Below, in pieces: positions 1,584 through 40,572 of a stretch of DNA of 64,000 nt. The notes under the pieces were generated by a model. The model had not been told where the DNA came from, did no database searches, and was given only the letters and a program-made list of their open reading frames with translations. Both the position numbers and the translations under genes were made by a program. Position 1 is the first letter of the stretch. Every line of letters begins with the position of its first letter. Origin of the DNA: Paracoccaceae bacterium (GTDB taxonomy: Bacteria; Pseudomonadota; Alphaproteobacteria; Rhodobacterales; Rhodobacteraceae); the NCBI GenBank assembly GCA_014879735.1, contig JACSRN010000132.1:81102-145101 (forward strand). Direction: 5' to 3'.

Positions 1584-4749
<3,166 letters not shown>

Positions 4750-4768
<19 letters not shown>

Positions 4769-5181
4769 GCTTCCCCCTGCGGCTGCGCCGCCCAGAATTT
4801 TTCCAGCCCGGCACGGACGCGGGCGATGTCGGTATCCAGTCCGGCCAGCTCGAATCGATAGAGCACCGGGACGTTGCACTTGGCAGAAACAACCCCGCCG
4901 GCGCAAGCATAGGTGGCGCCGAAACTGCGGTTGCCGCTGGCGATGACCCCGCGGATCAGCGCCCGGCGGGCAGGATCGTTCAGAAATCGGATGACCTGCT
5001 TGGCCACCGCGCCACGGCCTTCGCCATCGGCGTAGCTGGGCGTGATCAGGACGAAGGGCAAGACCGGCGCCGGCATCGGATCCTCGGGACGAATCGGAAT
5101 GCGCAGCGCCGGCAGGCCAAGGCGCGCGATGAACCGTGCGGTATTGCCCGAGGCCGACGAGTAATAGACAAGCCCGGGCAT
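4750..5181 (-). CDS. nrdI: Flavodoxin-like RNR assembly protein
   Basis: [32 protein letters not shown] motifs; lies between nrdH and nrdE. Confidence 0.95.
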
Positions 5182-34115: not shown

Positions 34116-34859
34116 TCAAGGCAGGCCGGAGGAGATCGCGCGACCGATTGCCACAAGCATTCCGGCGCCATCGGGCGTATCGGCAACGCGGCAACCAGCG
34201 AAACGTTCCGCCGGAACCTCTGCCGCCACCTGCGCGCTGATCGCGACAGCAAGAAGACGGGCCTCGATCCGGGACGGCGCGGCCGCCAGAAACAGCCGGA
34301 CCGACCGCGGCGAGAACAGGGGCAGGATGACGGGACCGGGTCGACCAAGGCAGTCAAGCGCGGCTGCTGTCAGCGGGCGGGGCCTCTGCGCGTAGACGAT
34401 CAGCTCTTCGATCTGGCACTGCGGCAACAGCGCCGCAAGATCGGCGGCGCGGTCTGCTCCGCGCAGCCACAGCAGCCGTGCGGTGTCCCCCGCCGCAGTC
34501 GGGAGAGCAGTATTCAGGGCCGCCGTACCCAGGGTTGCAACCAGCGCTGCGGCATCGGCTTCGATGACAGTGGGGATGAAGCCCGCGGCCGCAGCCCGGA
34601 TCGCGGTGCGTGTGCCGACGCAAAAAGCCGGTCGGGGCAGCGGCGCCAACCGTTCCGCCGCGGCAGCGCCCGCCTCCGACGTCAGGATCACGGCGGCAAA
34701 GGGGCCGGAGGGAACCTGCGGCGTCAGGATCTCGGTCATCATCAGGGGCGAGAGGAGCGGCGCGGCGCGGGCACCATAGGCGTCGGTCAGTTCGGCCGCC
34801 AGCCGGCTTGCCTGCGGTTCCGGGCGCGTGATCAGGATGGGGAAGGATTGTTTCGCCAT
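34116..34859 (-). CDS. hemD: Uroporphyrinogen-III synthase
   Basis: [36 protein letters not shown]. Confidence 0.85.
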
Positions 34860-34902
34860 GCCCCCGATGCTACCTGCGAGGAGCGAGGAGCTACAAGCAA
34901 CC

Positions 34903-35979
34903 ATGACGACGACCATCTTCCTTGGCATCGAATCGAGCTGCGACGATACCGCTGCGGCCGTGGTTCGTCGCGGGGCTGGCGGGGCGGAGATCCTGTCCTC
35001 GGTTGTCGAGGGGCAGGCGCCGCTGCACGCGGCCTTCGGCGGCGTGGTGCCAGAGATCGCGGCCCGGGCCCATGCCGAACGGCTGGACTATGCCGTCGAG
35101 TCGGCGCTTGCCGGGGCCGGGGTTACGCTTGCCGATCTGGACGGTATCGCCGTGACGGCGGGGCCGGGGCTGATCGGCGGGCTGCTGTCGGGCCTGATGC
35201 TGGCCAAGGGGCTGGCGGCGGCAAGCGGGTTGCCGATGGTGGGCGTGAACCACCTTGCCGGCCATGCGCTGACGCCGCGGCTGACCGACGGGATCGACTA
35301 CCCCTATCTGATGCTTCTGGTTTCGGGGGGGCATTGCCAGTTTCTTGCCGTCGAGGGGCCAGAGACCTTTCGGCGGCTAGGGTCCACCATCGACGACGCC
35401 CCTGGCGAGGCCTTCGACAAGATCGCCAAGCTTCTGGCCCTGCCGCAACCCGGCGGCCCGCCCGTCGAGCGCGAGGCGGAATTGGGCGATCCGAAGCGGT
35501 TTGCCTTGCCACGGCCGCTTCTGGATCGCGTGGGTTGCGACATGTCCTTCAGCGGGTTGAAGACCGCCGTCCTGCGTGCGCGCGACGAGATCATCGCGCA
35601 AAAGGGTGGGCTGACCGTGCAGGACCGCCGCGACCTTTGCGCGGGGTTTCAGGCCGCGGTGGCCGATGTCCTGGCGGAAAAGACCCGCCGGGCGCTGGCA
35701 GCCTTCCCCGCTCCGGTGATTGCGGTGGCGGGGGGCGTCGCGGCCAATCGCACGATCCGCACCCGGCTTATGGCGGTGGCCGAGGCTACCGGCACCCGAT
35801 TTCTCGCACCACCGCTGCGGCTGTGCACCGACAATGCGGCGATGATCGCCTGGGCGGGAATCGAGCGGTTTCAGGCTGGCGCCCGCGATGATGCCAGTCT
35901 TGCCGCCCGCTCGCGCTGGCCGCTGGATCAGACCGCCGCGCCGGTCATCGGCTCGGGTCGTCGCGGGGCAAAGGCATGA
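34903..35979 (+). CDS. tsaD: tRNA N6-threonylcarbamoyltransferase
   Basis: [51 protein letters not shown]. Confidence 0.96.
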
Positions 35980-35995
35980 CAACAGGAGAACCTCC

Positions 35996-36268
35996 ATGCG
36001 CGTGGCGCTGATCTGCATCGACAAACCCGGCCATCTGGATATTCGCAAGGCCAACCGCGACGCCCATCTCGCCTATATCGCCGAAACCGGCGTGGTCGAG
36101 ATGGCAGGCCCCTTCCTCGATGCCGAGGGCGGGATGTGCGGCAGCCTGGTGGTACTGGAGGTGCCCTCCGTCGCCGCCGCGCAGGACTGGGCGGCGGCCG
36201 ACCCCTATGCAAAGGCGGGGCTGTTCCAGTCGGTCGACGCTCGCGCCTGGAAGAAGGTGATCGGATGA
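35996..36268 (+). CDS. YciI family protein
   Basis: DKPG..IR..NRDAHL, AGPFLD, GSLVV, DPYAKAGLF; AGGAG RBS. Confidence 0.88.
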   Translation: MRVALICIDKPGHLDIRKANRDAHLAYIAETGVVEMAGPFLDAEGGMCGSLVVLEVPSVAAAQDWAAADPYAKAGLFQSVDARAWKKVIG

Positions 36269-36684
36269 ACCACTGGCTTTTCAAATCCGAACCCGATGCC
36301 TGGAGCTGGGACCAGCAGGTCGCGCGCGGCGCGGCCGGTGAAGAATGGCACGGCGTGCGCAACTATCAGGCCCGCAACAACATGCGGGCGATGAAGATTG
36401 GCGACCGCGGCTTCTACTACCATTCCAATATCGGGAAGGAGATCATCGGCATCGTCGAAGTCTGCCGCGAAAGTACGCCCGACAGCACCACCGACGATCC
36501 GCGCTGGGATTGCGTCTGGATTCGGGCGGTCAAACCATTGGCGCGGCCGGTCACGCTGGAGGATGTCAAGGTCACGCCGGGGCTGGAGCAAATGGTTCTG
36601 GCCACGAACAGCCGCCTGTCGGTGCAGCCGGTCCGGCCCGAGGAATGGGATCTGATTTGCCGCATGGGCGGGGTCGAGCCTTGA
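36265..36684 (+). CDS. EVE domain protein
   Basis: WLFKSEP..WSW, WHGVRNYQARNNMRAMKIGD..FYYHS, NSRLSVQPV. Confidence 0.92.
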   Translation: MNHWLFKSEPDAWSWDQQVARGAAGEEWHGVRNYQARNNMRAMKIGDRGFYYHSNIGKEIIGIVEVCRESTPDSTTDDPRWDCVWIRAVKPLARPVTLEDVKVTPGLEQMVLATNSRLSVQPVRPEEWDLICRMGGVEP

Positions 36685-36685
36685 T

Positions 36686-36733
36686 GTTCGCTTTATGTTC
36701 TCATTCCGGGTTGAAAAAGTTCCGATAATGTTC
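36686..36733 (+). promoter_or_regulatory. Two alphaproteobacterial LexA (SOS) boxes, GTTC-N7-GTTC, overlapping a sigma70-like promoter
   Basis: GTTCgctttatGTTC (36686-36700) and GTTCcgataatGTTC (36719-36733); TTGAAA at 36711, 17-bp spacer, TATATC at 36734. Confidence 0.82.
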
Positions 36734-36767
36734 TATATCTGGTTCCTGCCCCAAGGGAGCCAGACCC

Positions 36768-37064
36768 ATGGAACATGCCACCTTCGCCCTGCCCGTGACC
36801 GACCGCCAGCTCAGCTATGCCCGTGCGCTGGCACTGAAGAACCAGACCGTGCTGCCCTGGACGGTACAGCAAGACCGCCGGATGCTCAGCGCCTGGATCG
36901 AGGAACAGTCGAAGCTGCGCCCCTCGGCCGCGCTGGACGCATTGCCAAGTTCAAAACAGGTCGCCTTTGCCGAACGGCTGGCGCGGATCAAGCGTCGTGC
37001 CGTGCCGGACGAGTGCTTTCGCGACAAGGGCCTGATGTCGCGCTGGATCGATTCGAACCGATAG
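36768..37064 (+). CDS. Small two-repeat hypothetical protein, probably SOS-inducible
   Basis: AAGGGAG RBS; ungapped 50-aa internal repeat. Confidence 0.8.
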   Translation: MEHATFALPVTDRQLSYARALALKNQTVLPWTVQQDRRMLSAWIEEQSKLRPSAALDALPSSKQVAFAERLARIKRRAVPDECFRDKGLMSRWIDSNR

Positions 37065-37685
37065 GTCGGATGCGACGCGCTTGCTGCAATGCCGGGGCGG
37101 CTGTGATCGGACGCGGGCCATCCCCGTCGCGCGATGCTGCAAGGGAAGCGTCGTGACCCCTTTTGCCGCATTCGAAAGCGTTCTCGACAGCTTCGGCCAA
37201 GGCGCTGCGTGCTGCCGCCGGATCAGTCGCCGGGGCAGCCGGTCCGGATGACGCGGCCAACCGCCGATCGGGCCATTGCAATCCAATACGGCCGGGAACG
37301 TTGGCGCAGTCCATCGCGCTGGGGTCGGCGCCAGCGCGGCTTGCCTCTGTGAGAAACCCGCCGCGGCAGTACAGCAGGCGGCGCCACGGGGTGGCCTTGC
37401 CACGGCCTTTTCCCAGCCTTGCCTGACATCGCGCCAACCGGGCCGCGCCCACGGATCCGGTGCCACGCCCGATGCGGTGATCCAGGGTCCGGATCGCCCG
37501 GACATGCGTGAAGCCAGGCGCGGCCGTCACGGTGCCGGGCGGTACCTGTCCCGGCCTGGCTCATCCGCCCGAGGAGACCGTTTTGCGCTGACCCCGGCGA
37601 ATGGCGGAACGCCGGGATGGCCGGACAGATCGGCGGCAAGCCGGTTTATGCCGCTCTGGTTCCTGCCCGGGACCGATCCGGCCGG

Positions 37686-38030
37686 TCATTCGCCGAAATA
37701 GCGGCCGCGCTTGATATAGGCGTCGGGCACACAGGGCCGCACCTGCCCCAGAACGTGCTCCGCCTGCGACTTCGACAGGTTGGGAACTGCGTCGGCGATG
37801 AACACCGTGCCGCGGCCATTCGGGTTAAACCCGTCGAACTTGCCCACGAAATCGGACCAGGCCGAGTATCCGCAGGGTGCCAGCGCCGTGTCGAGATAGC
37901 GGGCACGGTCCAGCGCCGCATCGGCCCATTCGAAGGGCGGATGATCGACATAGCTGACAATCACAAACCATTCGTCTGCCGCTGCCGCAGCAGGCAGGCA
38001 GACCGTCAGGACAAGGGCGGAAAGGCGCAT
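37686..38030 (-). CDS. Hypothetical secreted protein, possibly SPOR-like fold
   Basis: Signal peptide MRLSALVLTVCLPAAAAA; C-terminal CVPDAYIK. The fold is a guess. Confidence 0.55.
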   Translation of the reverse strand: MRLSALVLTVCLPAAAAADEWFVIVSYVDHPPFEWADAALDRARYLDTALAPCGYSAWSDFVGKFDGFNPNGRGTVFIADAVPNLSKSQAEHVLGQVRPCVPDAYIKRGRYFGE

Positions 38031-38091
38031 CGAAATCTCCAGCATGAAATGCCGCCAGTCTCGCGCGCCGCGCCGATTCTGTCGAGCGCGA

Positions 38092-40572
<2,481 letters not shown>

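Follow-up and report, generated by a model that had tools for sequence, protein, structure and literature searches.

A very probable new SOS-response gene of Rhodobacterales, widespread and partly mobile, encoding a topoisomerase-tail repeat protein

We analyzed a 98-amino-acid (98-aa) open reading frame (ORF) within 64,000 nucleotides (nt) of DNA from a Paracoccaceae bacterium (contig JACSRN010000132.1, positions 81,102 to 145,101 of the forward strand); this whole stretch is hereafter called the window and its first letter is position 1. An earlier note on this DNA had proposed the ORF, which lies behind two direct repeats of the form GTTC-N7-GTTC, as a damage-inducible gene and had been unable to name its function. 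As judged by homology, its product corresponds to the C-terminal repeat of the topoisomerase III (Topo III) of conjugative plasmids, here in tandem and free-standing, and the ORF very probably represents a new SOS-response gene of the Rhodobacterales that is widespread and partly mobile. The explanation that best accounts for the data as a whole, and that we consider probable, is an SOS gene in which promoter, operator, ribosome-binding site (RBS) and an ORF for a topoisomerase-tail repeat protein form one self-contained unit. We are highly confident that the ORF is a real gene under predicted LexA control, and propose only tentatively that its product may be a DNA- or partner-binding effector. 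The regulatory logic is classical; the family is unannotated and would be new to the SOS regulon, and the free-standing topoisomerase-tail repeat and the mobile promoter-gene unit are unusual.

The 98-aa ORF is a real gene, because it has numerous homologues, varies most at third codon positions and is covered by transcripts in related bacteria. Homologues fell into 1,455 clusters at E <= 1e-3; among the best 120 of these, nearly all proteins were 98 aa long and 74-97% identical, came from Paracoccaceae or Roseobacteraceae where a source was named, and were called hypothetical. In a 31-sequence sample 42 of the 98 columns were invariant, and differences from the window copy across 84 coding sequences numbered 1731, 1196 and 3513 at codon positions 1, 2 and 3, respectively. 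Transcripts assembled from four RNA sequencing (RNA-seq) runs of cultured relatives cover the ORF. In two runs the contigs start 4-5 nt ahead of the ATG, and in the other two they start 11 nt past it. Contig starts lie 24-40 nt 3' of the equivalent -10 element, and in one run the sequencing adapter directly abuts the contig end. These contigs did not cover the promoter or the divergent intergenic region. The pattern fits transcription from the gene's own promoter, as the earlier note had suggested, with a start just 3' of the predicted -10 element. No RNA run was found for Sulfitobacter noctilucae, and a literature search for the family by protein accession and locus tag found no paper.

The evidence for LexA control begins with the rarity of the sites. 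On both strands of the window, exact GTTC-N7-GTTC occurs only as the distal box (box 1) and the proximal box (box 2), both inside the 83-nt gap between the upstream EVE-domain gene and the ORF (Table 1), and two sites no more than 50 nt apart were found in none of 400 first-order Markov simulations of the window. The motif is the published alphaproteobacterial LexA box (PMC3323433; PMC9578287, Table 1). We scanned the approximately 128,000 window positions with a weight matrix of 23 nt, derived from 79 distinct LexA sites predicted in 12 alphaproteobacterial genomes, including P. denitrificans and R. sphaeroides (PMC3323433, Additional file 4); these predicted sites lie upstream of lexA, recA, uvrA, ssb, dinB, ruvC, uvrD, imuA and related genes. 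Box 1 ranked first (28.9 bits) and exceeded the median of the training sites (25.6 bits), box 2 ranked second (19.6 bits), and the next best position reached 13.0 bits. The assignment of the repeats to LexA, made in the earlier note, thus finds support in a matrix independent of it.

The arrangement of the boxes agrees with their first description: box 1 begins 2 nt past the EVE stop codon, and box 2 lies inside the 17-nt spacer between TTGAAA and TATATC and fills it. The operator therefore lies in the promoter, with the proximal box between the -35 and -10 elements, as expected of a gene in the alphaproteobacterial LexA regulon. A good RBS and the 98-aa ORF follow, again as described. The alphaproteobacterial sigma-70 consensus is CTTGAC-N17-CTATAT, and the -10 element is better read as CTATAT, which shares the last base of box 2. 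An automated promoter scan missed this TTGAAA/CTATAT promoter because it demands a T at -10 position 6. The G+C content of the gap is 47%, compared to 65% window-wide. Box 1 and box 2 are 33 bp apart from start to start (32-33 bp in relatives), about three helical turns, and this phasing would be compatible with cooperative occupancy. No significant terminator was found between the co-directional EVE gene and box 1, a terminator-like match at 36675-36690 being within chance expectation; as a speculation, box 1 might additionally curb read-through from the EVE side.

The operator is conserved well beyond the window. We collected 80 loci from species-representative genomes (which hold at least 556 such loci), supplemented by exact-protein look-ups and plasmid records, set the gene starts by tblastn and counted operators at loci with at least 130 nt of upstream sequence. 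The earlier note had named orthologues lacking the upstream boxes as an observation that would speak against its proposal; an exact GTTC-N7-GTTC was present no more than 130 nt upstream in 97 of 98 loci, the background rate in the remainder of these loci being 0.023 sites per kb (15 in 654 kb). The sole exception (L095, 3940-3960) has GTTC-N8-GTTC, a 1-nt spacer insertion, and its neighboring helicase and AbiEii genes are fragmented; either the element is decaying or the assembly is prone to errors. Across 88 loci, 77 of them distinct in sequence, the information content reached about 2 bits at the TTG of the -35 element, at both GTTC half-sites and at the TAT of the -10 element, and about 1-1.6 bits at the RBS, while the flanks were close to 0. 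The register of the box between -35 and -10 is constant although the genomic contexts are unrelated, and the sequence 5' of the -35 element falls into several unrelated classes. P. denitrificans PD1222 (PDEN_RS25350) shows the same layout, TTGATTTT-GTTCCCTGTATGTTC-TATATT. Matches in Variovorax and Agrobacterium were discarded as candidates for a comparison of operators across classes, being topoisomerase C-termini and not free-standing genes.

The promoter-gene unit behaves as a portable module, found on integrative and conjugative elements (ICEs), on plasmids and as chromosomal singletons. In 64 of the 88 loci the small gene is divergent from a gene for a ~1,400-aa methyltransferase/helicase with AAA_34 and Helicase_C_4 domains, after which come genes for Toprim_3/DUF7146, DUF2493/YAcAr and WGR proteins; the other side of this island carries RES-Xre or AbiE toxin-antitoxin pairs, DUF6878, DUF6915, RadC, DUF932, SSB and H-NS. 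The gene is present on 154 PLSDB plasmids, 76 of them typed as conjugative, and several genomes have two copies. The Phaeobacter plasmid pP97_c encodes a complete VirB-type type IV secretion system, and its island is found on that side of the probable oriT which faces away from the relaxase, with cargo genes and 10-27 kb separating the two, a position consistent with, though not proof of, a leading region. Stand-alone copies occupy no fewer than four further contexts: the EVE-gyrB context of the window, between LacI/inositol and phoR-pst genes (Rhodobacter sp.), between P-type ATPase and hydrolase genes (PD1222 megaplasmid) and beside an insertion sequence (IS) of the IS21 family. Synteny with the window is retained in relatives at 97% and 87% identity, and the nearest non-syntenic relatives of the window clade (~80% identity) are ICE- or IS-associated. 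The earlier note had remarked on the location about 1 kb from gyrB and near recF. The distance is right (1,028 nt), but a functional tie to gyrB or recF was rejected: contexts differ between clades, most often being ICE or plasmid islands, so that the proximity is incidental.

The main alternative is that the family is primarily a switch or establishment factor of mobile elements, a small LexA-gated protein by which the behaviour of the element would be coupled to SOS. It might act like the antirepressors of coliphage 186 (Tum) and Gifsy or as an early anti-defence or anti-SOS factor, with the chromosomal singletons as relics or domesticated offshoots. The island genes, the plasmid copies, the multiple copies of several genomes, the position on pP97_c and the mobile-element association of the window clade's closest non-syntenic relatives all speak for it, as do the reports that conjugation induces SOS (PMC2958807) and that leading regions carry anti-defence genes (PMC11541004). 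Like LexA-controlled antirepressors (186 Tum, Gifsy GfoA/GfhA) and leading-region PsiB/SSB, it would be a small mobile-element gene tied to SOS or single-stranded DNA (ssDNA). However, no repressor gene, cognate or otherwise, is adjacent, the protein resembles neither known antirepressors nor PsiB, SSB or Ard proteins and has no PADLOC match, and vertically inherited chromosomal orthologues keep the operator. Furthermore, in four chromosomal or megaplasmid contexts that are unrelated to one another, stand-alone copies have stayed intact under purifying selection, with cognate element genes missing from their surroundings. A divergent Rhodobacterales subfamily of 115-122 aa, 50-55% identical, also retains the operator. 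It occupies one conserved chromosomal locus (AsmA, radical-SAM MiaB/RimO-like, small gene, DCC1-like and, further on, M48 peptidase) in three Roseobacteraceae genera, Sulfitobacter, Tateyamaria and an uncultured Roseobacter. The fixed locus and the retained operator speak for a function at the level of the host. We therefore regard a primarily element-serving role as unlikely.

In ICE and plasmid copies (L081, 7820-8001; L092, 11825-12001; L024, ~3825-4001), the operator lies in a divergent region of ~175 bp shared with the methyltransferase/helicase operon, which also holds a conserved pyrimidine-rich block, CCTCTTCCTCTCAAACCCC. RNA contig coverage on the helicase side is very low. LexA might gate both divergent directions in these copies.

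A second alternative to an SOS gene is that the direct repeats serve some different regulator, such as a response regulator, and not LexA, or that the repeats are merely part of a strong conserved promoter, with no SOS control. LexA binding and damage induction are, after all, read from the DNA, OmpR/PhoB-type and CtrA-type regulators also use direct repeats phased by 11 bp, and expression of the gene can be detected in RNA-seq data from ordinary cultures. The sites nevertheless score like those of lexA, recA, uvrA and imuA, including at non-core positions: on the 15 non-core columns alone, box 1 stands at the 99.99th and box 2 at the 99.4th percentile. The family-consensus site TTTTGTTCCTGTTATGTTCTATA reaches 31.3 bits, above the training median, the window's own box 2 being weaker. 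In the divergent subfamily, two of three loci have the standard operator layout. In the third, Tateyamaria sp. SN6-1 (L098, ~4955-4975), the spacer holds TTGAAATCAAAT and no box, and a perfect GTTC-TATATTT-GTTC overlaps the -10 element instead. Because the box was relocated yet stayed perfect, the comparison shows, at the level of predicted sites, that selection acts on LexA control itself and not on the promoter sequence. Control by another regulator, or by none, is thus very improbable.

Predicted control by LexA extends to the distal box. The double box is confined to the EVE-context clade (8 loci), and box 1 is absent from ICE, plasmid and other chromosomal contexts. Across four orthologous intergenic regions of this clade, the distal box retains its two GTTC half-sites but differs at 5 of the 7 spacer positions; by this pattern of conservation the distal box is functional rather than inherited noise. 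Predicted LexA sites at -96 and -45 of R. sphaeroides recA (PMC3323433, Additional file 4) provide a precedent for paired sites. The R. sphaeroides recA and rhizobial lexA promoters likewise have two direct-repeat LexA sites tens of bp apart, whereas the second site in the window is clade-specific and directly follows the stop codon of a co-directional gene. A further GTTC, spaced by N8 from box 2, is present as the earlier note had pointed out, but is probably not functional: as an operator half-site it was rejected, since it reads GTTT in all three relatives compared (L086 and L093, at 97% and 87% identity, and L094) and is probably a chance occurrence. It scores just 12.1 bits in the N7 register.

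We next consider the protein itself. It is basic (isoelectric point 10.25), and its AF2 model is all-helical (pLDDT 87.4) with a three-helix pattern that occurs twice. Profile-profile comparison of the N-terminal and C-terminal halves by hhalign aligned 36 columns in register (probability 92%, E 6.5e-7); BLASTP between the two halves gave no match, and the profile-profile comparison was needed to reveal the repeat. A profile search of 1.8 billion representative proteins returned 376 relatives. These include type IA topoisomerases of 755-920 aa, which carry the repeat module at their extreme C-terminus, after the Toprim and Topoisom_bac domains, and matched at E 2e-14 to 3e-12; repeat 2 aligns to the C-terminal repeats of three of them (P0249, P0261 and P0270). 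One topoisomerase cluster, from Aliiroseovarius and Phaeobacter, is named DNA topoisomerase-3 / type IA DNA topoisomerase. By tblastn against plasmids, the window protein matches within genes that are annotated as 'DNA topoisomerase' in Variovorax and Agrobacterium, and 1,027 of the 1,069 plasmids matching the topoisomerase family are typed as conjugative. The enzyme family is thus the Topo III of conjugative plasmids. Pfam found neither of the catalytic domains Toprim and Topoisom_bac in the 98-aa protein, both being present in the fused relatives; by its domain content the window protein is not a topoisomerase, just homologous to the tail of one.

In the conjugative Topo III of the TraE-TopB type (a 755-aa 'DNA topoisomerase-3' in Aliiroseovarius crassostreae and Phaeobacter piscinae), the shared unit of ~40 aa reads P-[ST]-x-[KR]-Q-x-x-[FY]-A-x-x-[IL]-A ... 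[LV]-P ... S-x-W-I-D. Over its residues 10-98, the window protein can be aligned with the C-terminal ~91 residues of the enzyme, where the unit is likewise present in two tandem copies. In contrast to the enzyme, the window protein is free-standing, lacks Toprim/Topoisom_bac and has its own promoter with putative LexA control; its repeat 2 is far more conserved, and no topoisomerase gene is linked to it on the same replicon. In strains that have both, topoisomerase and small gene are on separate replicons. Other relatives consist of arrays of 4-6 or more repeats, including algal-transcriptome proteins with N-terminal extensions, and such arrays of variable length fit an avidity-type binding module. 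Four of these relatives (P0151, P0171, P0240 and P0228) carry 4-7 repeat copies. P0151 and P0171 belong to transcriptomes of eukaryotes (algae; MMETSP/EukProt), and P0240 and P0228, from Logan assemblies, have N-terminal extensions like organelle transit peptides; the four may bind nucleic acids in organelles, or they may be bacterial contamination.

With small SOS effectors (E. coli DinI, YebG, SbmC/GyrI and SulA; Caulobacter SidA) the gene shares a short monocistronic form, LexA operator(s) overlapping the promoter and a presumed action on the machinery of DNA transactions. It differs from them in its tandem helical repeat fold, in the abundance of the family on mobile elements and in the lack of sequence or profile similarity; specifically, no similarity of the family to DinI, SulA, YebG, PsiB or Tum was found in Pfam, NCBIfam, annotated PHROG or PADLOC. 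A Rhodobacterales SOS cell-division inhibitor, functionally analogous to SulA or SidA, would suit a small, predicted LexA-controlled protein of unassigned function, and we know of no described SOS division inhibitor in this order, but it is most improbable given a soluble, basic protein with no transmembrane segment (unlike SidA, DidA and YneA), its homology to a topoisomerase tail, and multiple plasmid-borne copies per genome, which are hard to square with a division brake.

We propose the following mechanism for the SOS gene. During normal growth, LexA would occupy the proximal box, which fills the promoter spacer and touches the -10 element; in the window clade it would also bind the stronger distal operator 33 bp upstream, and both sites would hold transcription low. 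Upon DNA damage, RecA would be activated, LexA would cleave itself and the promoter would fire. The C-terminal domains of type IA topoisomerases bind ssDNA and protein partners, and from these roles, with which the basic charge and the variable arrays agree, we infer that the free protein may bind DNA or a partner: it would bind exposed ssDNA, gapped or structured DNA, or a conserved partner in DNA transactions at times when ssDNA accumulates. Such accumulation would follow damage and, for ICE and plasmid copies, also conjugative entry; LexA gating would let these copies fire once the incoming ssDNA triggers SOS in the recipient (PMC2958807).

Several observations weigh against this account. 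On the side of regulation, R. sphaeroides LexA at low concentration can stimulate recA transcription, according to a summary in PMC3381160, and therefore simple occlusion does not follow from the position of a box within the promoter. The copies of relatives are expressed in RNA-seq cultures of unrecorded condition, so repression may be leaky or there may have been basal SOS in those cultures. The public runs found for the window organism are DNA only, with no RNA run among them, and the literature yielded no report of damage induction or LexA binding for any family member. On the side of the protein, Pfam gave no match to the 98-aa sequence, nor did NCBIfam (TyeA as the sole noise match) or PADLOC, and PHROGs matched only families without an assigned function. 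The PDB held no significant match by fold (Foldseek, whole model) or by sequence profile, and the only significant fold match, in a viral structure library, was an uncharacterised Aeromonas phage protein (E 1.6e-4); single repeats superposed on other uncharacterised phage proteins at root-mean-square deviations of 0.9-2 A. DUF3072 (PF11272) left the window protein unmatched and reached only sub-threshold, single-repeat matches in four multi-repeat relatives (15-21 bits compared to a gathering threshold of 27.5; E 2e-4 to 2e-2). This family has no assigned function, and a literature search found no paper on it. For the topoisomerase-tail repeat, too, we found no experimentally examined function.

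A more specific version of the proposal, which we consider doubtful, is that the family is a new class of horizontally mobile, LexA-gated effectors of the ssDNA state. In this case, a topoisomerase tail acting in trans, and made solely upon LexA cleavage, would recruit, mimic or compete with type IA topoisomerase/SSB-type machinery on exposed ssDNA and aid the establishment of elements following conjugative entry and the processing of damage gaps in the host, and the ~40-aa unit would be an unrecognised nucleic-acid- or partner-binding domain of conjugative Topo III, phage and algal organelle-targeted proteins.

Table 1. Positions of the small gene and its predicted control elements in the window
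Feature	Position	Strand	Remarks
Stop codon TGA of the EVE-domain gene	36682-36684	+	Pfam EVE, E 2e-46
Distal LexA operator (box 1), GTTCGCTTTATGTTC	36686-36700	+	Exact GTTC-N7-GTTC; putative
-35 hexamer TTGAAA	36711-36716	+	TTG at ~2 bits, 88 loci (77 distinct sequences)
Proximal LexA operator (box 2), GTTCCGATAATGTTC	36719-36733	+	Exact GTTC-N7-GTTC; putative
-10 element, CTATAT or TATATC	36733-36738 or 36734-36739	+	TAT at ~2 bits across loci
Predicted transcription start	about 36745-36748	+	Inferred
Third GTTC, 8 nt beyond box 2	36742-36745	+	Probably non-functional
RBS AAGGGAG	36753-36759	+	8 nt ahead of the ATG; 1.0-1.6 bits across loci
98-aa ORF	36768-37064	+	ATG at 36768, TAG at 37062-37064
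Repeat 1 (residues 11-46), topoisomerase-tail type	36798-36905	+	hhalign, N-half against C-half
Repeat 2 (residues 61-96), near-invariant SSKQVAFAERLARIKRRAVPDECFRDKGLMS.WID	36948-37055	+	Aligns to C-terminal repeats of type IA topoisomerases

The small gene of the window lies in core, origin-proximal chromosome of an uncultured Paracoccaceae found in wastewater and activated-sludge metagenomes. The gene order is hemY-like, HEM4, tsaD, YCII, EVE, small gene, a 119-aa secreted-looking protein, gyrB (38092-40542, minus strand), LysE, acetyltransferase, recF, dnaN and dnaA; past gyrB (38092 onwards, minus strand), where a glyoxalase/acetyltransferase follows LysE, the order was read by identity with locus L082. 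The tsaD, YCII and EVE genes (~34828-36684, plus strand) are co-directional with overlapping or adjacent stop and start codons, and are probably one operon reading towards the distal box. Between the ORF and the 119-aa gene lies a gene-free segment of 621 bp with 70.5% G+C (37065-37685), present in window-identical genotypes only; it gave no match in Rfam and does not recur in the window. The same junction is ~30 bp long in L086 (97% identity) and holds a dimethylsulfoniopropionate (DMSP)-lyase gene in L093 (87%), so this looks like a variable insertion spot. The 119-aa ORF (37686-38045, minus strand) has a signal-peptide-like N-terminus, adjoins gyrB upstream in all clade relatives (114-119 aa) and has no Pfam, NCBIfam or PADLOC match. 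A sub-threshold Rfam match to SECIS_2 on the opposite strand inside the small ORF, from a scan of 36400-38200, was treated as noise.

If the proposed reading is correct, a widespread and hitherto unannotated member would join the SOS regulon of the Rhodobacterales, a clade of ecological importance in marine and wastewater environments, and the small protein would offer the first functional handle on the tail repeat of conjugative-plasmid Topo III. Moreover, a compact promoter-operator-gene unit that travels among ICEs, plasmids and chromosomes with its predicted LexA control kept would tie damage signalling to mobile elements.

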